Below, piece by piece: positions 2,730 to 42,067 of a stretch of 64,000 nt of DNA. A program made the translations under genes and the position numbers. Below the pieces are notes generated by a model that ran no database searches, had not been told where the DNA came from, and was given only the letters and a program-made list of their open reading frames with translations. Numbering within the stretch: the stretch's first letter is position 1; each line of letters opens with the position of its first letter. This stretch comes from Octopus sinensis (Eukaryota): positions 21,638,001 to 21,702,000 of the forward strand of contig NC_043020.1 of NCBI RefSeq assembly GCF_006345805.1, in the 5' to 3' direction.

Positions 2730-3905
2730 TTTATCTCTAATCCCTCCTACAATTACATAGTTTATTGGATGTTACTCTGGTCTGAGTCTTCTTATTTTTA
2801 TTTTCGTTCTTATCTGTATGATTATTATTACTATTATTCATATTGATGCTCTTATTTTTGTTGTCACTAATAACATGATTAGACTTAGGTTTGGTAGTTG
2901 ATTTCAAAATTATATTTTTATTGTTATAGTTATTATCCTTAGCCATATACTTAATTCTGTTTCCATCTAATCCTGTATGCAAGGTATTGTTATTAGCTAG
3001 TATTATGTTTATCAGTAACACATTTAACTTTTCTCCTATTTATTGAGGCTATTATGGCTCCTAAATTCAGCATTACAAAATATGAAAATTTTATAGCGGA
3101 TTTAATGCATATGGTATAATATTTATGGGGTTATGGGAAATTTGATTGTAGAATTTCAAAGAAAAGTTTAGGTAAATTTCTAACCCTGAGTGAGAAAGCA
3201 GGAGTGAACCACACAACCTCACATATTCTAGGTTTAGAATTACAGGATATATTCAGATTTTCAGAGGTAGTTTATAGTTATATTTATTACAATTATTACA
3301 ATGCTTATGGTTTCTCGAGCCAAACCCTTCAGTTGATTAGTGCTAAGTATATTTAATGAGCCTAATTTCCCTAAATCTACAGAATTATTAGAAGTGATAT
3401 TTGCCATCTTCATTTTTAATTTTGTATTTGGTATATAATAAATGTTTTTATCAAATCCACTTCATTTCAGTGTTGTTTAGAGATATCTTTGTTAGCTAAG
3501 TTTGACAACCTAATTGGAATAGTTACCATGATGCTATTAATAGTTGAGTAGGGGTGGTTTTGAGGATACATTGATGTATTGAAGGGTTTGGTTCGGTTTC
3601 TTATATGGATAAAAGAGACCTTTATTTAAGTGTAATGTAACACCAAGACAAGGTTATAAAAATTTTTTATAAAGTTTTTAGATCTCCTTTTAATCTTACT
3701 ATGGCAGGATTAGATAGATTGTGTGTGATAAATAGGGCAAAAAAGGATTTAAAGAGATTTATAACCTTAAAATCGGGCTCTACTATCCGTATAGGAAACC
3801 AAACCAAACCCTTCTATATGTCAATGTATCCTCAAACCTCTCCTACTCAACTATTAATAGCATCATGGTAACTATTCCTATTAGGTTATCAAACTAATCA
3901 ACCAT
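2730..3905. mobile_element. Decayed Penelope-like element fragments in inverted arrangement
   Basis: Minus-strand RT C-terminal part and Asn-rich linker ending in CNCR (2737-3021). Segment ~3500-3610 is repeated inverted at ~3785-3896 (YRKPNQTLLYVNVSS...IPIRLS). Confidence 0.65.
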
Positions 3906-4283
3906 TCAAGTTATGCTCTGATTTTACAAGTCCTGGGTCGCCACTGTTACCTTTGGATTATTCAAGTATATGTTCATGTAGATACACTCATACCCAACAT
4001 TTTTACAACTTTCATCCATCTTTTCACAAACACGTTGTACAACAGGCATCTTTGCTCCAACCTTAAGGAAAACTACCTCACTAGGGCTGGAGATGAAGAT
4101 GCCTGTCGCAACTCCTTTCGTATGAATTTTCCAAGCAACCTCTTTTCTTACAGCTACCACTGCGAGAAAAGATGCCTTTCCTTCTTTACCAAAGGCGGAA
4201 GGCGGGATAATCTTTATAATTGACTCAGAGGACAACTGTACTCTTCCCATACGGGACAGCAGCTGTTCGACATATACCTACAT

Positions 4284-4471
4284 AATACAGTTCAGTTCTG
4301 TATTTAAGATATGAGGAATTATGTACATTATTTACATTTGATGGATATTTGTCCTCATCTTGTTTGTTGTTAACACAATGTTTCAGCTGATATACCCACG
4401 GGCATATGGTGTAGTGGTTAAGAGTACAGGCTACTAACCCCAAGATTCTGAGTTCGATTCCAAGCAGTGAA

Positions 4472-4523
<52 letters not shown>

Positions 4524-4654
4524 TTGAAAAATACCTTAAGAAATAGAACCCAGGTTCGAAATTTCCCCAAGACACTTGATGAAGGCTGGAGGGTATATCA
4601 GCCGAAATGTTGTGTTAACAATAAACAAGATGAAGACAAATATCTGTCAAATGT
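4284..4654 (+). mobile_element. Non-autonomous PLE-derived element with tRNA-like head, (AAT)n and hammerhead motif
   Basis: 12-bp TSD atatacctacat (4272-4283) / atatacccacat (4655-4666); inverted PLE termini; A box TGGTGTAGTGG (4407-4417), B box GAGTTCGATTC (4450-4460); homologous to 11150-11373. Confidence 0.8.
4572..4615 (+). ncRNA. Minimal type-I hammerhead ribozyme motif (degenerate)
   Basis: acac-tTGATGA-aggctg(gagggtatat)cagcc-GAAAt-GTT-gtgt; stem I acac/gtgt; two core substitutions relative to the consensus of the window's copies. Confidence 0.7.
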
Positions 4655-4759
4655 ATATACCCACATCTCCATAATTTTGGACACTGTACAATCGCATGCA
4701 GGACAGTTTCAAAGGTAACAGTGGCGACCCGGGATTTGTAAAATCAGAGCATAACCCAT

Positions 4760-7564: not shown

Positions 7565-8873
7565 AATATTCACATTGAATATTCTCTCAATGAAAAAATT
7601 GTGTAGAGTCAACATGTATCTGATTCTTCCTCACTGGTTCTATGGCAGCCTATAGGAAGCGACATCTTTTTCTTCATGCTGACCTTCATCCAACATTTTC
7701 TCTACCCTGGAGCAACATGCAACATTCTTTTTAACCCATTTTTAGCAGTGATGTCCGTCTCTGGTTTGCTCAGGTGTAAACTTACTTCACAGCAAGCAAT
7801 ATTTAGTCAAGCCAGTAGCAACTAAGCATTCTACTCAGCACCATTCCTGTTGCCTTAGCCACTCGACTCAAGGATCTAATAACTGACACACCACACAACA
7901 CAACTTATGCATCCATAATTCTTAACAGGACATCTCTATTGGCCAAGTGCCATTTCGAAACCCTGATATATGATGAACATTTGGGTGACAGAAAGCCCAC
8001 AGAATTTCTTCATCACATTCGTGAACTCACAGACAAGTTCCCTGAAGACAGCTCTCACATGTTCAGGCAATTTTGGTGCCCATGATCAAAAGAAGTTTAG
8101 CTGACCAAATTGCAAATTTTGCCAATAAAATCATGGGATTTTCCAGAAATTCGCTCACAGCACAGCAGACAGTGTTGTTGCTGCGACTTCTTCATTGATG
8201 GCTACGGCTGCCACCAACAGCAGCTCTACACAGTCGGTAACTTTAGAAGCCACTTTAAACCTGACCAAGCAGGTGTAGAGATTATGTTCATCCTGAAGCT
8301 TGCAGTGTCATGGTCGCTCAACCAGTGGTGACTGGCGTCTCCGTTGTCCACCTCACCACATGGATTTTGTTGGTACCATGACCATTTTGGCGTGAAAGGC
8401 GGAAATGCCTTTCACCATGTTCGTATGCGTGCCAGGAAAAGTAACCAGGAGACCCTGAGCATGTCAGCAGCTCCCACTACTCCTAATCATGCATTTTTGT
8501 GCTGGACCACAACTCGCACAAGAATTTTATGTCGACACAGGCGCTTCATGTAGCATTCGGCTGGTAAAGTTCTCTCTCGGATTTCTCTGCAAGCTGTCAA
8601 CCATTCTCCTATTGACACATTCGGGCAGATATCTCTCTCACTACAGAGGGAGTTTCATAATTGCAAACCAACCCTATCCTCAGGGCAGATCTCCTCCACT
8701 ACTTCTTGCTGTCGGTGGATGTTTGCCAACAGCATTTGTTGGATAGCTCAATGTAGTCATCGGTTCCTGGTTGTCCAGCATCCACTCCTGTTGTAAGCCC
8801 AGCATTTTTTAATGTTGTATCCGATGATACAAGCCATTCTCCTCTCAACTCTTTCCCAGAGCTTACTGATTTA

Positions 8874-11373
8874 TTTACATTATTTACAATTGATGGATAT
8901 TTGTCCCCATCTTGCTTGTTGTTAACACAACGTTTCAGCTGATATGGAGTGAATTTTAGGGCTAATAAATCTAATATTCTTCTATCCTTCCTTAATACCG
9001 GTTCTCATATGCTGTTCATATCTGCACTCGGTCTGCTTAGGAGGTTGTCGTGTCCTAGCATATGTGCTGCTTCTTTTAGTTTTTGTATTCTCCAGTGGTG
9101 TTCTCTGTCTATTATTTTAACTTCATCCCACAGATGGAGGTGGCCTCCATTTTTCCATACATATTCAGCTATACCCGATTTATCAATATCTCCCCAAGTC
9201 ACAGTTTTGCAATCTTCCTCTACCCTTATTTTTAAGGGGCAGCATGTTTCACCTTTGTATAACCTACATGGCATGGCATGGAGTACACGCAGTTCTTGGT
9301 CATATTCTCTTCTATTGGTGGTTTTACTCGAAGGAGATATTTGCAAAGTGTTGTATTACTTTTGAATACTGTCCTGGTGTTATATGGGCTGCATATCTTT
9401 TGTATCTTTTCAGAGAGGCCTTTCACATAGGGTAGACAGACTGTGGACAGTTTATCGGTTCCATCCTCTCTTTTCTTCATAATTGGAGTAGAGGTATGTT
9501 TTTGGGGTAGTTGTTGCTTAACATTATTGTTGCTGAGCCTGATAATTTCTTCGTGGTGGGTATCGTGATCGCTACTTAAATTCATTGCTCAATGTTTTAG
9601 GCACTGAGCAATCCCTCTCTTTACACTGTATGGATGGTGGGAGTTGAAGTTGAGGTATTGTCCAGTGAAGGTCGGCTTGCGGTATACGGATTTCCTGAAT
9701 CCAAACTTGGTGCGTGTTATTAATACGTCCAGGAATGCTAGCTGATTATCTTTTTCTTTTTCCATTGTGAACTGTATGGATGGCTTTATTGAGTTCACAT
9801 GATCTAACAGCACTTGGACATCTTCCTGGTAGGGCCAGAGTATGAAGGTATCATCAACATACTGCAGCCATAGGATTGGTTTTAGTGGTGTTGATCCTAA
9901 AGCCAAATTCTCAAAGTATTGGCTATTATTGGTGATAATGACAAACCCATAGCTAAACCCTCTTCTTGTCAATATATATCAGTATCCATACTGAAGTAGG
10001 TAGTTTCTACATAGAAGGTGAATATTTCCATCAAGTTTCTTTGTAGTATACTAGTGCAATCTTTTAGATGGGTGTCTGTCACTAGTTTTCTTGAATCACC
10101 GATAGTGCTTCACCAATTGGGACTTTGGTGAACAAACTTATCACATCTAGACTCACCATCTGGTTGGATTCAATGGGGGTATCTTTGATCAATTCTGTTG
10201 TGAAGTGGACTGATTATATCTACAAGGAAGTGGCTCAGTGGATGACATGCCAAACCTCTACAGCTCACTTTAGTTTCTTAATGGAATACCATCCTTGTGA
10301 ATCTTAGGAAGACCATACATGGTTTACGGTAGTGTTGAGTTAGTTGTCTGTACTTCATTGGTGTAAGGTGATCCTTGTTCTTGCTCAAGATCTGTGAAAA
10401 CTTCCTCTCTGTTTTCAAAGTAAGGTCTTTCTTCACTTATAAGACTTGCCAGTTTTTTTGAGTAGTCAGACTTGTTCCTCACCACTGTAGCATTTCCCTT
10501 GTCTACTGGAAGAATTATGGTGGAATCGTCACTCTGTAGTCTTTTGATAGTGAACGTATCTTCCTTAGTGATGTTTGGTTTGGGAAGTTTTCGCTTTTTC
10601 TAGTATCTGTCTCACTTTCCACCTTAGTTCATCTCCCTGAGATTTTGGTATCTTTATGGCTATCTCTTCAATAGGGGCTATTACGTCCAAGTATTGAATG
10701 CGCTTGATGTTTGTTGCAAAGCTGAGACCTTTGTTCAGTACTGCTTCTTCAGAGCTTTCTAGATGTCAGCTACTTACATTAATTACTGCTTTTACAGGTG
10801 GGTGACAGACTTCAGTCTTCATTCTGAGACCTTTGAGTTTCATAAACTTCTTAATCTGGCGTGTCTTCACCATTTCAAATTCTTTCATGTATGACTTTTC
10901 TAGGTCTTGTTGGATTATCTTTCTATCATCATCTCTGGTTATTTTCCTAAGTAATGATGATAATGTCTCTTTGAGAACACCACTGGAAAACACAAAAACT
11001 AAAAGAAGCAGCACATATGCTAGAACACAACAACCTCCTAAGCAGACCGAGTGCAGATATGAACAGCATATGAGAACCGGTATTAAGGAAGGATAGAAGA
11101 ATATTAGATTTATTAGCCCTAAAATTCACTCCATAATCGCCATGGACAAGTTTCCATGTTTGATTCCAGGCAGTGACCTGAATAATAATAACAACAACAT
11201 CAAAAAATACCTTAGGAATGAGAACCCAGTTTCAAAATTTCCCCAAGACACCTGATGAAGGCTGGAGGGTTATATCAGCCAAAACGTTATGTTAACAAGA
11301 AACAAGATGAGGACAAATATCCATCAATTGTAAATAATGTACATAATTCCTCATCTCTTAAATTAGAACTGTT
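8874..11373 (-). mobile_element. Penelope-like element (RT + C-terminal GIY-YIG; Penelope/Poseidon type) with inverted pLTR
   Basis: 11-bp TSD ttactgattta (8863-8873 / 11374-11384). RT WLQYVDDTFILW...FLDV...VYRKPT (9589-9972); GIY-YIG CVYSMPC..YKGET (9005-9346). The 3' end is duplicated inverted at ~10955-11373. Confidence 0.9.
11248..11292 (+). ncRNA. Minimal hammerhead motif in the PLE pLTR
   Basis: acac-CTGATGA-aggctg...cagcc-aAAAC-GTT-atgt. The inverted partial copy at ~8922-8945 retains GAAACGTTGTGT. Confidence 0.7.
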
Positions 11374-13221
11374 TTACTGATTTAACTTTCAACATCGCTG
11401 TACATTCAATGAGACATTTTATCGACACCAACGGTCCACCAGTGTTTGCTCATCCTCACCGTCTTCCTCCTGATAAACTCAAGGCTGCAAAAACAGAATT
11501 TGATCACATGCTTCTGCTGGGGCTTATTCGTCCTTCTATAGCTTCTGGTCTTCCCCTCTCCATTTAGTCCCCAAAGGAAAGACTGATGTCCAGTCAGTTG
11601 GTGATTATTGAAGATTAAATGCTATTACAACTTTGGACAAATATCCTAATCCACACCTGTAGGACTTTTCTTTTACCTTGCACAGTGGTACTGTTTTTTC
11701 TAAGATTGATCTCATCTGGGCATATCACCAGATTCCTTTAAATCCAAATGATATACTAAAGATTGCTGTTACTACACCTTTTGATTCATTTGAATTTCTT
11801 TCAATGCCTTTGGGGTTGTGGAATGCAGCTAGCACCTTTCAAAGGTTTATAGACAAGGTTATTCACAGTCTCAACTATACATATCGATTTAGTTGGGCTT
11901 TGGCCACCTAGCTACAGATTCACATACATTCTTACCTATATTGATTGGTTTTCATGTAGGCCTGAAGCCATCCCTCTTGTCAACAGTAGTGCTGGATCCA
12001 TGACACAAGCCCTCATCTCAGGTTGGATTTCCTGCTTTGGAGTTCCTTTACTTGTCACAACGGACCACAATTCAAGTCACTGTTGTTCAACCAACTTTCT
12101 GCTGTCCTGGGAGTTCGCCATATCTGTATAACCAGCTACCATCCAGCTTCGAACAGTATGGTCGCTTTCACAGGCAATTAAAAGCATCTCTCCATGCATA
12201 CCCTGATCCTCAATGGTAGTGTGAGTACCTGCCTTTCATTCTTTTAGGTTGTCACTCCTCCATGAAAGAGGATTTGGGATTTTCTGCTGCATTGTCTTTA
12301 CCTGGCCAAATACTGGCCCCTGTGGATATTTCAGCACAAGATCCAGCTACCTATGTTCATTGTCTGAAAACCTATTTCTCTGATTTTCCACTGATATCTT
12401 CTAGAGTAGTGTAGCAGTGCCATAAGGGCTAAAAGGAGTTATGCTCCCTCATTCTGTCATTAGTAGGGGGTGCTGTGTTGGAACTTCCACTAGAGAGGCA
12501 TAAAAATCCTACAAGGACAATGATCTTTCTCTTTTTCTGTCACTCTCACTGACTGCTGCTGTTCCAGCTAATATTGATAAATGGACCCACATTTTCCTCT
12601 GGGATGATTCTGTGAAGAGTCCTCTTACGCAATTCTGTAAGGGGCCTTATCGTGTCCTGGGAAAAACGTCAAAAATGTTTTCCATAGACATTAATGGATT
12701 TAAACAGACTGTTTCAATTGATAGGATGAAGCAAGCTTTTTCTGAAGCTCTCACTCCAGAACCAAATGTTCCCATCCACTTTCCATCTCCGATATCCACA
12801 GATACCACACTCATGCAAACACCACCATCACACAAGTATGTCTCTCCCGTTCCACCACCACATGTCACAACTACCTGGGTTGGGCGTCAGATACACTGAC
12901 CAAAAATATTGTGTAAGACTATGTATACTGTACCCTGACTTTTACACATCTTGGCATTTTCCATGCATTTTATTTGAACATTGTAGCACATTCCTGACAT
13001 TTTTCTTATGTGGCACATGCCGTGTCTTCAAACTTTTGGAACTGCTGCATTAATTTTTGCATGTTTTATTTTCTCTTTTCACTGATAGAACTGTTTATTT
13101 TTCCTTTTTCTTCCATTTTGTGCATGCCTTTCCTGATATTTTCACTCCCTCTGTTTTGTTCCCTAGTTTGGCCTTTTACTATGGCATACCTATTTTCAGC
13201 TTACAGCCATGGGGGGAGTAG

Positions 13222-15946: not shown

Positions 15947-16342
15947 GTGTGTAGGTTCTACCTGAGAGGTTCCTGCTGGCATGGAAAGCAAGGTGCAGGC
16001 TGCCGCTTTGCACATCGGGGACCCTGCCACAGAGACACGAGGCAGATGGACAAACCATCAACACAAGGAAAAAGGATGGACCACGCACCACCTGCCCCAA
16101 AGCGGAGGTACGCAGATGTTGTGCGTGCCACAAACCGCCAACATGATGTTGTCGAAAGGGCAGCTGCTGAGCAACAATCTTTTTTGTGCATGGCACAAAA
16201 GATTGTACAGCAGCTGACCTGGCTTCATCAAACCCAAGCCCGCAGGTGGGACTACCCGCTATATACCAGACCACCACAGCAAACAGACCCAGGATGGACA
16301 CCGCCGGCAACAACGTACACCTCACCTCGATGCTCCTACTGA
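15947..16342 (+). CDS. LINE ORF1 C-terminal part with CCCH zinc finger (5'-truncated)
   Basis: CRFYLRGSCWHGKQGAGCRFAH = C-x7-C-x8-C-x3-H; overlaps ORF2. Confidence 0.65.
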   Translation: MCRFYLRGSCWHGKQGAGCRFAHRGPCHRDTRQMDKPSTQGKRMDHAPPAPKRRYADVVRATNRQHDVVERAAAEQQSFLCMAQKIVQQLTWLHQTQARRWDYPLYTRPPQQTDPGWTPPATTYTSPRCSY

Positions 16343-19290
16343 ACATCAGAGGGCTGCAAACACTCAGTAACAGGACAAAAATCCCATTCCTGAGAGACTT
16401 TGTTGCATGCAATCAAGCCTTATGCATAGCACTCACGGAAACGCACCTGAAACCAGACATAGCAGATGCGGAATCACACATACCACAGTATGCTGTACTA
16501 CGGACCGACAGAAAAGAAAGGAGTCATGGAGGTGTTGCTATGTACATCCGTGAGGACCTCACACCCCAGGTCCTCTTGTCATACTCAAACTCGGTGTGTG
16601 ACATACTAATTGTACATATTAGGCAACTTGATGTAGTTGTGTGTGCTACATATCGCCCTCCAGATGCCCCAAGCCATGTGGGCAAGTTTGAAGACTGCCT
16701 TATAAAAATAGAAGAAGTTCTAACCACATTAGAACAACACATAAGTGTACTTCTTATGGGAGACTTCAATCTGCCCAATGTCAGATGGCCCGAGGGCCTT
16801 TCTCTCCCAGGAATGACAAGATGTGAACGAGGACAGGCGAGGTCCCTCCTGAACCTCATCAACACCCTGTACATGGAGCAGGTAATACTCCAACCAACCA
16901 GGGCAGGTAACACACTGGATCTCTGCTTCACAAATAATATGGATCTCATCCATAATGTGAAAGTGACACCGACACTACTCTCGGATCACAACATGATAGA
17001 GCTGACCATGTACGGGCCAAAAGAGAGCACGGACATGCAGCCTACAAGAAACCCTCAGAATCTTTCCAGCTTGAACTACCATAAGGCAAACTGGAAACAA
17101 ATTGAGAAAGAGATCCTCAAACAAAACTGGCCTAAATGTCTCTCCTCGCCAGACATCGACGTGAAACTTCAACAATTCATGTCTGTAATGCAAGCCATAT
17201 GCTACAAATGTGTCCCAGGGAGAAAGGCCACTGTACACAAGAACAAAATCCCCAGAGAGAGGAAAATTTTAATGAGACGGCGTACAAAATTTTCAAATCG
17301 CCTAAACAAACAGATTGAAAGCAGTGAAAAGTCTCGCCTAAAAATAAAACTGTTGGAAATCGAAAAATGTCTGCAACTCTCCCATGAAAAAGAAAGAGCA
17401 GACAAAGAAGCCTGGGCTATAGACAACATAAAATCTAACCCCAGAGCTTTCTACAGGTATGCCAAAGAAACAGCTACGGTGCACTGTAGAATAGGGCCAC
17501 TCCTCGAAAAGGATGGCACACTTACAGGAAAACCAATGAGGGTAAGTGAAATACTGAATGAGCAATTCAAGAGTGTTTTCACTCCACCCCTTGGGCATCT
17601 CCAAATCACCAATCCAACTGACTTTTTTACCACTGCAGATACAAAATCAGAGGCGGCGACGATAGATTACATCGATATAAAGGAAGACAATGTAATCAAG
17701 GCTATAGATGAAATGAAAACAGACTCAGCTACTGGCCCCGATGGATTCCCGGCAATCCTCCTAAAAGCATGTAAGAGAGTCCTAGCAAGACCACTGCAGT
17801 TCCTCTTTCAGAGCTTCCTTGCAGCTGGCAAACTTCCAAGAAAACTGAAGGAAGGTAAAATATGCCCCATTCATAAAGGAGGTAGCAGAGCGGAAGCCAA
17901 GAACTACAGACCTATCTCTCTGACTTCACACATCAGCAAGGTCATGGAACGAATAGTCAGAAGGAAGCTGAACACCTTCCTTGAAGGGAATGACTTGCTG
18001 CCCGACACCCAACATGGTTTCCGACCAGGGAGAAGCTGTTTAACTCAGCTCCTACAACACTATGACTGGGTGCTGAAACGGCTGCTCAACCACTCAAATG
18101 TGGAAGTGATATATCTCGACTTTGCAAAGGCCTTTGATAAAGTCGATCATGGAATGATATGTCACAAACTGCGTGATCTCAACATAGTTGGAAAACTGGG
18201 AGAATGGCTTCATGACTTTCTGAAAGATAGAAGTCAGGTGGTAGTAGCCAATGGGGCTACTTCCATTAACACGCAAATAGTGAGCGGTGTTCCGCAGGGC
18301 ACCGTTCTGGGACCACTACTGTTCATAATGGCCCTCTCAGACATGCCCTCAGCAACGCAGAGAGCCACGATCACAAGTTATGCAGATGATACAAAAGTTT
18401 CACAGGCAATACAGAACCCTGAGGACACTAAACACCTGCAATGTAAGCTGGACAAAATATACAAGTGGGCTGAAAAGAATAGCATGCAGTTCAATGCTGA
18501 AAAGTTTCAAGCTCTATACTATCAGCATGCAAAACTAAATGCAATACCCAATGAATACACTGGACCCGGAGGAATAGCAATCCCAGAGGCACAATCAGTG
18601 CGTGACCTAGGTATTTACATGAGTGATGACGCGACCTTTCGTGTACATGTTGCTAAATTGGCAATGAAATGTAGACGACTGGCCGGATGGATCCTCAGAA
18701 CCTTTAGAACAAGAGAACAGGAAACCATGATGGTCCTCTGGAGGACACTTGTCCTAAGCCACTTTGACTACTGCTCTCAGTTATGGTCACCATCCAGTGT
18801 CAAGTTGATCACAGAGCTCGAGGCGATCCAACGTAGCTACACGAAGAAGATAGCCTCTATGCAGAATGTAAGCTACTGGGAAAGACTCAAGAGATTAAAA
18901 CTATATTCCCTGGAGCGTAGGCGGGAAAGATATGCCATAATATACATCTGGAAGATCCTGGAGGGACATGTCCTAAACTTTGGCATCGAGAGTTACGCAA
19001 ATGCCAGAACTGGGCGCCACTGCGTGGTGCCTAGGACTCCAAACTTGCCATCAAGATGTAGGACAAGATTCTGTGATAGCCTGGGCTTCCGAGGCCCACA
19101 GCTCTTCAATATCCTCCCGAAGAACCTGAGAGACCTGATTGGGGTGGATGCAGATGTCTTTAAAATGAAGCTGGATCTCTTCCTGTCAGGTGTCCCAGAT
19201 GAACCAACTTCACGGCAGGAGGGGCAGATGAGGGCAGCTGCATCGAACTCTCTCATGCACCAAATGGCAGTTGCTAGAAAGCTTTCGTGA
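16294..19290 (+). CDS. Intact LINE ORF2: APE endonuclease + reverse transcriptase (998 aa from ATG 16294)
   Basis: LNIRGL, ALTETHL, YRPP, MGDFNLP, LDLCFTN, SDHNMI (APE); NYRPISLTS, QHGFRPGRSC, LDFAKAFDKVDH, GVPQGTVLGPLLF, YADD (RT); no stops. ATG in AGGATGG context; the frame is open from 16171. Confidence 0.93.
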   Translation: MDTAGNNVHLTSMLLLNIRGLQTLSNRTKIPFLRDFVACNQALCIALTETHLKPDIADAESHIPQYAVLRTDRKERSHGGVAMYIREDLTPQVLLSYSNSVCDILIVHIRQLDVVVCATYRPPDAPSHVGKFEDCLIKIEEVLTTLEQHISVLLMGDFNLPNVRWPEGLSLPGMTRCERGQARSLLNLINTLYMEQVILQPTRAGNTLDLCFTNNMDLIHNVKVTPTLLSDHNMIELTMYGPKESTDMQPTRNPQNLSSLNYHKANWKQIEKEILKQNWPKCLSSPDIDVKLQQFMSVMQAICYKCVPGRKATVHKNKIPRERKILMRRRTKFSNRLNKQIESSEKSRLKIKLLEIEKCLQLSHEKERADKEAWAIDNIKSNPRAFYRYAKETATVHCRIGPLLEKDGTLTGKPMRVSEILNEQFKSVFTPPLGHLQITNPTDFFTTADTKSEAATIDYIDIKEDNVIKAIDEMKTDSATGPDGFPAILLKACKRVLARPLQFLFQSFLAAGKLPRKLKEGKICPIHKGGSRAEAKNYRPISLTSHISKVMERIVRRKLNTFLEGNDLLPDTQHGFRPGRSCLTQLLQHYDWVLKRLLNHSNVEVIYLDFAKAFDKVDHGMICHKLRDLNIVGKLGEWLHDFLKDRSQVVVANGATSINTQIVSGVPQGTVLGPLLFIMALSDMPSATQRATITSYADDTKVSQAIQNPEDTKHLQCKLDKIYKWAEKNSMQFNAEKFQALYYQHAKLNAIPNEYTGPGGIAIPEAQSVRDLGIYMSDDATFRVHVAKLAMKCRRLAGWILRTFRTREQETMMVLWRTLVLSHFDYCSQLWSPSSVKLITELEAIQRSYTKKIASMQNVSYWERLKRLKLYSLERRRERYAIIYIWKILEGHVLNFGIESYANARTGRHCVVPRTPNLPSRCRTRFCDSLGFRGPQLFNILPKNLRDLIGVDADVFKMKLDLFLSGVPDEPTSRQEGQMRAAASNSLMHQMAVARKLS

Positions 19291-19719: not shown

Positions 19720-20761
<1,042 letters not shown>

Positions 20762-39390: not shown

Positions 39391-42067
39391 ACGTGGTGGT
39401 GGAACAATATTGTAGACAGGGCTATTAGAGAAAAGAGACAGGCTTGGAAGGTCTGGAAAAATGGGGGTAGCAGGGAATTGTATCAGACTGCCAAAAGAGA
39501 AGCTAGGAGACAGGTTTATTTAGCCAGAGGGGAAGCAGATAAGAAAAAATTTGCCAATGTTCTGCGCCGTGAGGACCAAAGACTGGAGGTGTTTCGTGTT
39601 GCAAGACAGTGTGTGAGAGAGAATCGTGATGTGGTAGGAGAGAAGTGTGTTCGCATGGAAGATGGTTCACTTGCGCTAAATGAGGATGCAAAGAGAGAGG
39701 TTTGGAGATGCCACTATGAAAGGTTGCTGAATGAAGAAAATGAATGGGATAAAGAGAGTCTGCCGAATGTTGACCCAACAGAGAGACCAGCTATCCGAGT
39801 TGATAGTTCTGTGGTAGCTAAGGCAATTAGAAGCATGAAGACAGGGAAAGCCCCAGGCCCATCAGGAATCACTGCAGAGATGCTCAAAATGTCTGGTAGT
39901 GTCGGCTATAGCCTAGTCACCCATATAGTTAATCAGGTGATACACAAAGGGGTCATACCCAATGACTGGTGTAGCAGTATAATAGTCAACTGCTACAAAG
40001 GTAAAGGTGATGCCCTAGATACAAATAACTACAGAGGTATCAAGCTGTTGGACCAGGTGATGAAGGTTACGGAGAGGGTCATAGCCCAACTAATTAGAGA
40101 GAGAGTTAGTTTAGATGAGATGCAGTTTGGGTTTGTGCCAGGGAAAAGTACTACTGATGCTATATTCCTGGTAAGGCAGCTGCAGGAGAAATACCTAGCC
40201 AAAGATAAGCCCCTGTACCTGGCTTTTGTTGACATGGAGAAAGCCTTTGACAGGGTCCCCCGATCCCTTATCTGGTGGGCAATGAGAAAACTAGGGATAG
40301 ATGAATGGTTAGTGAGAGCTGTGCGGGCCATGTATAGGGACGCCGCTAGTAGGGTGAGGGTTGGAAATGAGTACAGTGAAGAATTCCGGGTAGAGGTAGG
40401 GGTCCACCAAGGCTCAGTACTCAGCCCCCTCCTATTTATCTTAGTCCTCCAGGCAATAACGGAGGAATTCAAGACAGGATGCCCTTGGGAGCTCCTCTAT
40501 GCTGATGACCTTGCTCTAATTGCTGAGTCGCTATCAGAACTGGAGGAGAAGTTTCAGGTGTGGAAACAAGGATTAGAATCGAAGGGCCTCAGAGTCAATC
40601 TAGCTAAAACCAAAGTCGTAATCAGTAGGAAGGTAGAAAAATCACAAACACCTTCAGGTAGATGGCCCTGCTCGATCTGTAGAAAAGGTGTAGGTAGAAA
40701 CTCTATAAGATGCACCAAGTGTAAGCTATGGACACATAAGAGATGCAGCAATGTCAAAGGAAGGCTAACTAGGAAGATGGTTTTTGTATGTGGCAGATGC
40801 TCAGGAACAATAAACACTGAAAATGCTCTGAGACCAACTTCCGTCACTTTCCAGGGAGAAAAACTAGAAATAGTTGATAGTTTCCGTTACCTAGGTGACC
40901 AAGTCGGCAGCGGGGGCGGGTGTGCTGAAAGTGTAACTGCTAGAGTAAGAATAGCTTGGGCAAAGTTCAGAGAGCTCTTACCTCTGCTGGTGACAAAAGG
41001 CCTCTCACACAGAGTGAAAGGCAGACTGTATGATGCGTGTGTACGAACAGCCATGCTACATGGCAGTGAAACATGGGCCGTGACTGCTGAGGATATGCGT
41101 AAGCTCGCTAGAAATGAAGCCAGTATGCTCCGATGGATGTGTAATGCCGGTACTCACACTCGGCAGAGTGTAAGTACCTTGAGAGAAAAGCTGGACCTAA
41201 GAAGCATCAGTTGTGGTGTGCAAGAGAGACGTTTGCGCTGGTATGGTCATGTGGCGAGAATGGATGAAGATAGTTGTGTGAAAAAGTGCCACACCCTAGC
41301 GGTTGAGGGAACCTGTGGAAGAGGCAGACCCAGGAAAACCTGGGACGAGGTGGTGAAGCACGACCTTCGAACTTTAGGTCTCACTGAGGAAATGACTAGA
41401 GACCGAGACCTCTGGAAGTGTGCTGTGCGCGAGAAGACCCGGCAGGACAAGTAAGTCCACAACCCGTGGCCTTCTACATGGGATGGAGCCAGCCTACGTA
41501 TGCATACCTTCCCTTCTTGGGACACAAAACTCTACTTGTGAAGACGTGTTGAGGCAAGTGAGGATCAGAATCGAAATCGATCAATGGAAATTGCGGATGT
41601 GCTACCAGTGCCGGTGGCATGTCGAAACTCTGCTTGTGAAGACCCATTGAGGCAAGTGAGGATCAGAATCGAAATCGATCAATGGAAATCGATCAATGGA
41701 AATTGCAGATGTGTTACCAGTGCCGGTGGCATGTAAGAGAACTTTCCGTTTCGCGACCGTTGCCAGCACCACCCTGTTTCGTGTCCGTTGCCAGCCTCGC
41801 CTGGCCCTCGTGCCGGTGGCACATAAAAAGCACCATCCGTTCGTGGCCGTTTGCCAGCTCTGTCTGGCACCAGTGCGGGTGGCACGTAAAAAGCACCCAC
41901 TACACTCACGGAGTGGTTGGCGTTAGGAAGGGCATCCAGCTGTAGAAACACTGCCAGATTTGACTGGGCCTGATGAAGCCTTCTGGCTTCACAGACCCCA
42001 GTAGAACCGTCCAACCCATGCTAGCATGGAAAACGGACGCTAAATGATGATGATGATGATGATGATG
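39391..42067 (+). mobile_element. Young 5'-truncated RTE-clade LINE with PHD-containing RT, repeat-rich 3' UTR and (GAT)n tail
   Basis: Uninterrupted 658-aa frame. The 5' break matches 63541 of the sister copy. Confidence 0.92.
39478..41454 (+). CDS. RTE reverse transcriptase (N-terminally truncated, frame intact) with internal PHD finger
   Basis: NYRGIKLL, QFGFVPGKSTTDAIF, DMEKAFDRVPR, GVHQGSVLSPLLF, YADD, then a C4HC3 finger (40669-40800), FRYLG, LHGSETW, RGRPRKTW. Confidence 0.85.
   Translation: MYQTAKREARRQVYLARGEADKKKFANVLRREDQRLEVFRVARQCVRENRDVVGEKCVRMEDGSLALNEDAKREVWRCHYERLLNEENEWDKESLPNVDPTERPAIRVDSSVVAKAIRSMKTGKAPGPSGITAEMLKMSGSVGYSLVTHIVNQVIHKGVIPNDWCSSIIVNCYKGKGDALDTNNYRGIKLLDQVMKVTERVIAQLIRERVSLDEMQFGFVPGKSTTDAIFLVRQLQEKYLAKDKPLYLAFVDMEKAFDRVPRSLIWWAMRKLGIDEWLVRAVRAMYRDAASRVRVGNEYSEEFRVEVGVHQGSVLSPLLFILVLQAITEEFKTGCPWELLYADDLALIAESLSELEEKFQVWKQGLESKGLRVNLAKTKVVISRKVEKSQTPSGRWPCSICRKGVGRNSIRCTKCKLWTHKRCSNVKGRLTRKMVFVCGRCSGTINTENALRPTSVTFQGEKLEIVDSFRYLGDQVGSGGGCAESVTARVRIAWAKFRELLPLLVTKGLSHRVKGRLYDACVRTAMLHGSETWAVTAEDMRKLARNEASMLRWMCNAGTHTRQSVSTLREKLDLRSISCGVQERRLRWYGHVARMDEDSCVKKCHTLAVEGTCGRGRPRKTWDEVVKHDLRTLGLTEEMTRDRDLWKCAVREKTRQDK

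Follow-up and report, generated by a model that had tools for sequence, protein, structure and literature searches.

Among the repeats of the window, by which we mean the whole 64,000-nucleotide stretch of Octopus sinensis DNA analysed here, a short unit at 4284-4654 joins a tRNA-like head to a hammerhead-shaped stretch and to sequence of a Penelope-like element (PLE). The initial annotation had read this unit as a separate non-autonomous SINE/retrozyme hybrid with a short, self-cleaving RNA. The question raised by the locus is whether such short copies form a lineage of their own or are pieces of the coding element, and which polymerase would produce the RNA from which they were copied.

Results

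The unit and related copies in the window

As had been proposed, the unit was inserted as a whole and carries its own 12-bp target-site duplication (TSD; Table 1). The parts listed for it were likewise recovered, namely the inverted arm, the A and B boxes, the (AAT)n tract, the second B-box-like core and the hammerhead-shaped stretch, but the sequence described as a Penelope terminus is the start of an open reading frame (ORF). The inverted arm also codes for part of the ORF N-terminus, and the 5' end of the window copy, at about -5, lies within the zone where the 5' ends of the family pile up. In this copy the ORF start codon is mutated. An intact hammerhead with an AACGTT palindrome in stem III had been assigned to the unit as well; this palindrome is absent from the window copy, in which the core is TTGATGA and stem III is GAAATGTT, as compared with the family form CTGATGA...GAAACGTT. 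As core and stem III are both mutated, the window hammerhead is probably inactive.

Table 1. Penelope-family features in the window, with positions counted from its first nucleotide.
Feature	Position	Strand	Remark
Left TSD of the unit	4272..4283	+	11/12 match to 4655-4666
Right TSD of the unit	4655..4666	+	
Inverted arm, hammerhead loop II to distal 3' end site (~+283)	4284..4397	-	30-40 nt "tail" included
Five family-derived bases just 5' of head	4395..4399	+	
tRNA-derived head, likely Pol III type-2 promoter	4400..4473	+	Pol III use predicted
A box	4407-4417	+	In tRNA-derived head
B box	4450-4461	+	Canonical tRNA spacing from A box
(AAT)n spacer	4475..4521	+	Variable length; 5' leader of ORF
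First 38 codons of RT/endonuclease ORF, to proximal 3' end site (~+245)	4542..4654	+	
Second GTTCGA core	4553-4560	+	
Minimal type I hammerhead inside ORF	4571..4616	+	Core and stem III positions mutated
Coding copy of same Penelope family	8874..10972	-	5'-truncated, frameshifted
Inverted arm of coding copy	10973..11373	+	ORF end, part-deleted head, spacer, ORF start, mutated hammerhead, tail
Miniature two-armed insertion, same family	19813..19885		In (AT)n tract

Two 46-bp inverted arms that are 96% complementary (3910-3955 and 4710-4755) surround the unit, which was therefore inserted into a TIR-like element; we take the interior of this element to resemble a piggyBac-type remnant. At 3490-3904 lies a long palindromic, MITE-like element in which inverted arms of 71 and 73 bp are nested.

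The coding element at 8874-11373 has an exact 11-bp TSD (8863-8873 and 11374-11384). Its coding copy has lost the head and the first half of the hammerhead at its 3' junction, and the hammerhead of its right-end module (11147-11373) shows GAAA changed to AAAA. This module had been read as the 3' pLTR of the element; a related coding element with a TSD is indeed present, but its ORF lies on the minus strand, and the right-end module is therefore an inverted 5' arm. The relic of fused termini noted near 19820-19885 was recovered as a two-armed insertion with slightly wider limits (Table 1).

Other elements were seen in the window. A broken reverse transcriptase (RT) fragment adjoining the coding PLE copy (11400-11900) is presumably Gypsy-like, judged by its motifs. 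An open LINE ORF of 1039 aa with endonuclease and RT domains (16171-19290) possibly represents a young copy, and a 687-aa open frame (39391-41454) contains an RT domain and a weak PHD/C1-like match under the curated cut-off.

An abundant, decayed family with a tRNA-derived head

Searches of the 2.72-Gb genome with module sequences, as the initial annotation had suggested, yielded thousands of exact matches: a 33-nt hammerhead core occurred 1,997 times, a 33-mer further downstream 3,087 times and a 33-mer from the head, which is partly degenerate, 3,189 times. As the reversed controls yielded none, these family motifs are not chance occurrences. Evenly spaced stretches amounting to 599.8 kb contained two head-bearing insertions, both extending to the head start, and one tail fragment; 4 of 93 arms were exact for the 33-mer, and the copy number is roughly estimated to be of the order of 10^4. 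All sampled copies are decayed and about 10% apart.

The family ORF encodes a PLE-type RT (DKG motif and RVT_1) with 107 protein relatives of 684-1326 aa, which are of Penelope/Poseidon type and include an Anolis PLE; a tblastn search with the Anolis protein gave coverage up to residue 811 of 836. Features characteristic of PLEs were present, including a single ORF that combines this RT with a C-terminal GIY-YIG region, partial tandem pLTRs with inverted, 5'-truncated arms, a 30-40 nt tail at one end only (55/58 two-armed insertions) and a minimal type I hammerhead motif in the pLTR, whose stems I and II fold as expected. On the ORF fragments scanned, Pfam gave no direct GIY-YIG match, and Rfam gave no hammerhead match in the window copy or in locus L240. 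An intact hammerhead core followed by CGT was found in 20 of 93 arms that had not been selected by that motif. A recurrent core variant, CTGAAGA (L181, L238, L240, L172 and others), alters the free position 7 only and is found in short and coding copies.

Of 10 host tRNAs tested, a tRNA-Arg(TCT) matches the head best, with identity at 45-48 of about 72 nt, a value higher than in any of 300 shuffles; ARAGORN and Rfam reported no tRNA match in the window copy or L240. We assign the head a tRNA origin because of these identities and because it carries A and B boxes, a combination also typical of SINE2 elements; in the commonest letters of the family, both boxes are preserved intact and spaced as in a tRNA. 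We conclude that the Penelope/Poseidon family is real, abundant and by now decayed, and that its 5' end derives from a tRNA.

The module is the 5' end of the coding unit

In the family the head is followed by (AAT)n, the ATG, the hammerhead, two 3' end sites (+240-254 and +268-283), the remainder of an ORF of about 2.6 kb and then another head. One locus (L361) preserves a complete natural unit, which begins at -2 and extends 2.8 kb, across the ORF, as far as the following head. The supposed terminus leads without a break into coding sequence in L111. Thirty loci were selected with the first 230 nt of the ORF, three of them being one duplicated insertion, and in at least 22 of the 30 the terminus likewise runs on into the ORF. 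In L222 a natural frame of 390 aa extends from the module ATG, about 34 nt 5' of the hammerhead core, to past the DKG motif, and the closest relative (P0001, 49% identical) keeps the hammerhead-coded peptides TPD(D/E)G and KRCVNN.

At the other end of the unit, no more than about 15 nt separate the ORF end from the head in 27 of the 30 loci selected with the ORF 3' part; four of the 30 are one duplicated insertion. These loci agree with the earlier proposal that a Penelope-like family captured a tRNA-type promoter 5' of its hammerhead, the head being part of the family and not a one-off SINE insertion. It is very probable that the unit corresponds to the 5' end of an autonomous element of Penelope/Poseidon type and that the short copies originated by run-off.

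An independent SINE composed of the head alone was also considered and was rejected, as 28 of 30 loci selected with the head show it continuing into the module. Pairs of hammerhead matches 2-7 kb apart, taken as candidate full-length elements, proved to be separate short insertions. The native junction of ORF end and head is a near-palindrome of the first ten bases of the head, and may record capture of the head by fold-back.

Copies end at the head start and at two 3' sites

The 5'-most positions were read by hand in insertions chosen by exact motifs downstream of or inside the head, nearly all of them from chromosome C1, with L244, 245, 249, 250, 254, 259, 262, 379, 388, 398 and 403 dropped as duplicates. 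Among the 96 insertions of sets A and B, 46 end at -10..+12 of the head, 13 inside it, 10 in the spacer and 12 downstream of the spacer, and 15 extend into the upstream ORF; the 26 new insertions of set C comprise 19 head starts, five that pass through and two that end inside the head. The 10 spacer-ending copies were excluded from the breakpoint counts because target microsatellites confound the breakpoint, and L141, which ends in the spacer, was left out as well.

Counted in this way, 65 of the 85 sampled copies that reach the head stop at -10..+12, about 20 times the background rate. In sets A and B the stop rate is 0.061 per nt at the head start, as compared with 0.0033 inside the head and 0.0023 in the ORF (binomial P ~1e-39). 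The initial annotation had set a start at the tRNA head against random breakpoints, and the observed frequency is far above random. The pile-up persists in the head-anchored set alone (19/24). With a mode at -6, 39 of the 65 ends lie upstream of +1, and most fall 8-16 nt upstream of the A box. We take the pile-up to mark the 5' end of an RNA, placed where a promoter consisting of the A and B boxes would start.

A similar pile-up might be produced structurally, either by RT stalling or cDNA fold-back at the palindrome and tRNA-like fold, or by an RNase P cut at +1. The head can fold stably, many junctions are fold-backs, and 32 of the 65 head starts were not counted as simple junctions; as the 5' junction of the head is near-palindromic, fold-back explains part of the pile-up. 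The 33 simple junctions without fold-back nevertheless stop in the same range (-8..+11), the 39 ends upstream of +1 would be lost to an RNase P cut, and neither ARAGORN nor Rfam scores the head as a tRNA, which together make an artefact of this kind very improbable as the source of the pile-up.

No corresponding pile-up was found at the predicted hammerhead cut site: of 30 arms anchored 3' of the hammerhead, just one starts near it. Secondary arms start at scattered places, a few of them at +190-198, where the palindrome GTTAAC is an alternative cause.

The 3' ends of 177 arms fall mainly at two sites, 93 at +240-254 and 80 at +265-284. Among 58 two-armed insertions, 55 combine one long with one short end, the remaining three have short ends on both sides, and a pair of long ends was never seen; TSDs of at least 10 bp were present in 40 of the 58, as compared with 2.9% of mismatched pairs. 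This one-long/one-short rule is genomic evidence in favour of the two RT start sites observed in vitro, and it suggests that each target strand has one start site. Four loci (L129, L158, L166 and L167) contain internal ORF pieces joined directly to the head start, and these joints suggest template jumps after RT run-off at the RNA 5' end.

Short copies compared with coding copies

Under a rival model, the short copies would constitute a genuine SINE lineage: short masters would be transcribed by Pol III, their RNA would undergo ribozyme cleavage, and the Penelope-like protein would move them in trans. When 39 short loci were compared with 55 coding loci, no compared column differed in its commonest letter; of 16 variable columns, mostly CpG, three had nominal P <0.05, and the lowest value (0.006) belongs to a variable repeat at +247. 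Short masters may have escaped a sample of this size. Short head-start copies do outnumber ORF-bearing copies by 65 to 20, with intact boxes and TSDs, and schistosome SINE-like hammerhead repeats provide a precedent in the accessible portion of the published account (PMC6765202). The CTGAAGA core variant is nonetheless found in short and coding classes alike, and of the 30 anchored arms just the one noted above starts near the cut site. As a distant analogy, the Anolis Poseidon template needs RNA past the RT start sites, at least in the accessible description of that element, and this part would be missing from the short copies.

Comparison with the classes named in the initial annotation leads in the same direction. 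A SINE2 element would be a non-coding lineage with its own masters and a 3' tail in common with the 3' end of its partner; here no diagnostic column separates short from coding loci, the module encodes the ORF N-terminus and the shared part is the 5' end of the partner. A retrozyme would be expected to form head-to-tail arrays, but a neighbour in this arrangement was present for only 3 of 123 insertions (L116, L148 and L258). Among the RNA joints listed, from libraries unsuited to circular RNA, none falls at the hammerhead cut site. It is on these grounds improbable that the short copies form a SINE or retrozyme lineage of their own with a self-cleaving short RNA; most of them are probably dead ends, and insertion can probably proceed without hammerhead cleavage.

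Octopus SINEs named OK, OR1 and OR2, reportedly described by Ohshima and Okada in 1994, have tRNA-derived heads, as does this Penelope family; OR1 or OR2 is cited as a CORE-SINE in an excerpted source. The short form, compared with these three by description alone, may already be catalogued as a SINE, and the family may already be listed in published supplementary repeat libraries.

The ORF lacks a shared TTTT run

Runs of four T residues (T4) terminate transcription by Pol III; this is established for the vertebrate enzyme and is assumed here for the family ORF. If the ORF is transcribed by Pol III, it must therefore be without T4 runs. On the sense strand of 54 ORF segments from 44 copies (61,343 nt, 22.6% T; duplicate loci L224, L049 and L043 left out), 17 T4+ runs were present as against 825 A4+ runs. 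There are 16 T4+ sites, each covered by 18-38 segments, of which 15 are private to one copy and one occurs in 2 of 26. Expected numbers of T4 runs per near-complete copy are 4.1-5.2 from base shuffles and 2.0-2.9 from dinucleotide shuffles (P 0.03-0.08 for zero), and synonymous permutation over three tiled natural frames gave P(0) ~0.04 (product of 0.277, 0.174 and 0.783).

Metagenome contigs served as controls because all 30 best same-genome matches to a distant PLE protein were members of this family; 50 of 80 loci were chosen, as matches of about 1.5 kb or more. None of these 50 Penelope-like ORF segments is without TTTT and four have only one, with a total of 406 runs observed as compared with 400 expected from dinucleotides. 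For 26 T-matched controls, the median was 3.1 TTTT per kb and the mean P for none in 2.6 kb was 0.018. Two LINE ORFs of the window contain 5 and 2 TTTT runs. The chance of an ORF without a shared TTTT is about 0.02-0.04, and the absence is a single evolutionary outcome with modest odds. Counting against the Pol III reading, TTT and near-terminators are not depleted in the family ORF. One control PLE has an A/B-box stretch nearby, which resembles an unrelated SINE. The nearest counter-example to the terminator argument is another control (L266, 76-2421), with one TTTT in 2.3 kb as compared with 5.2 expected and with no A/B box found.

Raw RNA reads from three runs of one study, possibly of a different species, covered the hammerhead region about 3,000-fold, the A box about 300-fold and the ORF about 10-fold, and showed no strand excess and no sharp starts. 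As depth mirrors copy number, it was not used as evidence. No splice-like joint in the 5' leader was found among the RNA joints listed, at an ORF coverage of about 10 reads.

Pol II, starting from an internal promoter at the head, would generate the same anatomy and the same run-off copies, and a start at the same position would give the same pile-up; the A and B boxes would then be a relic and the absence of TTTT a product of chance. Penelope of Drosophila uses a LINE-like internal promoter, according to the accessible text of its description (PMC2377424), a capped RNA would solve the problem of translation, and the expected levels of TTT and near-terminators also fit. Harder to reconcile with Pol II are two boxes that remain intact at tRNA spacing in the commonest letters, with most 5' ends 8-16 nt upstream of the A box, and an ORF without shared TTTT, a state seen in 0 of the 50 controls. 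We consider Pol II transcription unlikely. Transcription by Pol III from the A and B boxes of the head, to which the 5'-end pile-up and the absence of a shared TTTT both point indirectly, is in our judgement probable.

Discussion

The explanation that we favour, and hold to be reasonably likely, is that the unit represents the 5' end of a coding Penelope/Poseidon element with a tRNA-derived leader, and is likely an RT copy of the first ~280 nt of an RNA likely made by Pol III. Transcription would begin a few bases 5' of the head and, with no terminator in its way, could continue through the ORF into the next unit. The protein would nick both target strands about 10-15 bp apart, and cDNA would start at two internal sites, one per strand, as observed in vitro for Anolis Poseidon. 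RT starts in the first unit would give run-off copies of about 280 nt reaching the RNA 5' end (about 3/4 of those that reach the head), and starts in the second unit would give ORF-bearing copies; the two cDNAs would then join or fold back into head-to-head arms within one TSD.

The A-rich leader may help translation of the uncapped RNA, for which viral CAA-rich leaders provide an analogy in cap-less translation; alternatively, the protein could be made from Pol II read-through. Ribozyme-aided cap-independent translation is reported for RNA viruses in the available part of one study (PMC13725137), and is unlike the case of this family because hammerhead cleavage would remove the ATG. We advance only tentatively the proposal that the Pol III RNA also serves as mRNA. 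Similarly tentative, and perhaps somewhat doubtful, is the full scheme of an autonomous coding element that depends on Pol III from end to end, with a captured tRNA promoter, a terminator-free 2.6-kb RNA that is translated without a cap and reverse transcribed, and some ten thousand SINE look-alikes shed along the way.

The family resembles Anolis Poseidon PAc, as far as the latter is described in the accessible sections of Frangieh et al. 2024 (PMC11167929), in its single ORF with RT and C-terminal endonuclease, its hammerhead overlapping the ORF start, its partial tandem and inverted arms, and its two internal RT start sites, which in PAc define the tail, an optional 30-40 nt. It differs from PAc, within the same sections, in having a tRNA-derived leader with A and B boxes, an ATG upstream of the hammerhead core, 5' ends piled at the head and an ORF without shared TTTT. 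In the schistosome SM-alpha and Sj-alpha repeats a Pol III-type promoter likewise precedes a type I hammerhead, but those repeats are described in the available text as non-coding, often tandem and self-cleaving (PMC6765202), whereas the octopus hammerhead is minimal, lies in coding sequence and is part of an autonomous element.

Non-LTR retrozymes are also short hammerhead repeats related to PLE pLTRs, with a proposed use of PLE proteins, and are presented in the accessible parts of two reports as head-to-tail arrays giving circular RNA (PMC7229834; bioRxiv 10.64898/2026.07.22.740005); the octopus copies, in contrast, are dispersed, head-to-head and start at the promoter instead of the cut site. 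A small-RNA-derived Pol III promoter in a terminal repeat is shared with the TRIMp3 elements Cassandra, Helenus and Ajax, which are non-autonomous LTR elements whose autonomous partners are argued to need Pol II in the excerpted account (PMC10886601), whereas in the octopus family the autonomous unit itself bears the promoter. As non-autonomous hammerhead repeats derived from PLEs and schistosome repeats with Pol III promoter plus hammerhead are already published, the version proposed in the initial annotation is less new than the one found here. The more unusual point is that the promoter heads the coding unit itself, and that this unit is without a shared TTTT run. A literature search, with most subscription journals, Repbase and Dfam outside its scope, returned no PLE with a tRNA-type promoter and no coding retrotransposon transcribed by Pol III.

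To our knowledge, autonomous retrotransposons are assumed to need Pol II, since translation is required. If the Pol III reading is true, a coding element driven by Pol III would break this rule and would provide a natural system in which to study how a long Pol III RNA is translated independently of a cap. Such an element would also illustrate one route to SINE birth or mimicry, in which internal RT initiation makes SINE-shaped copies of the 5' end of an element, and annotation pipelines may file such run-off copies as SINEs.
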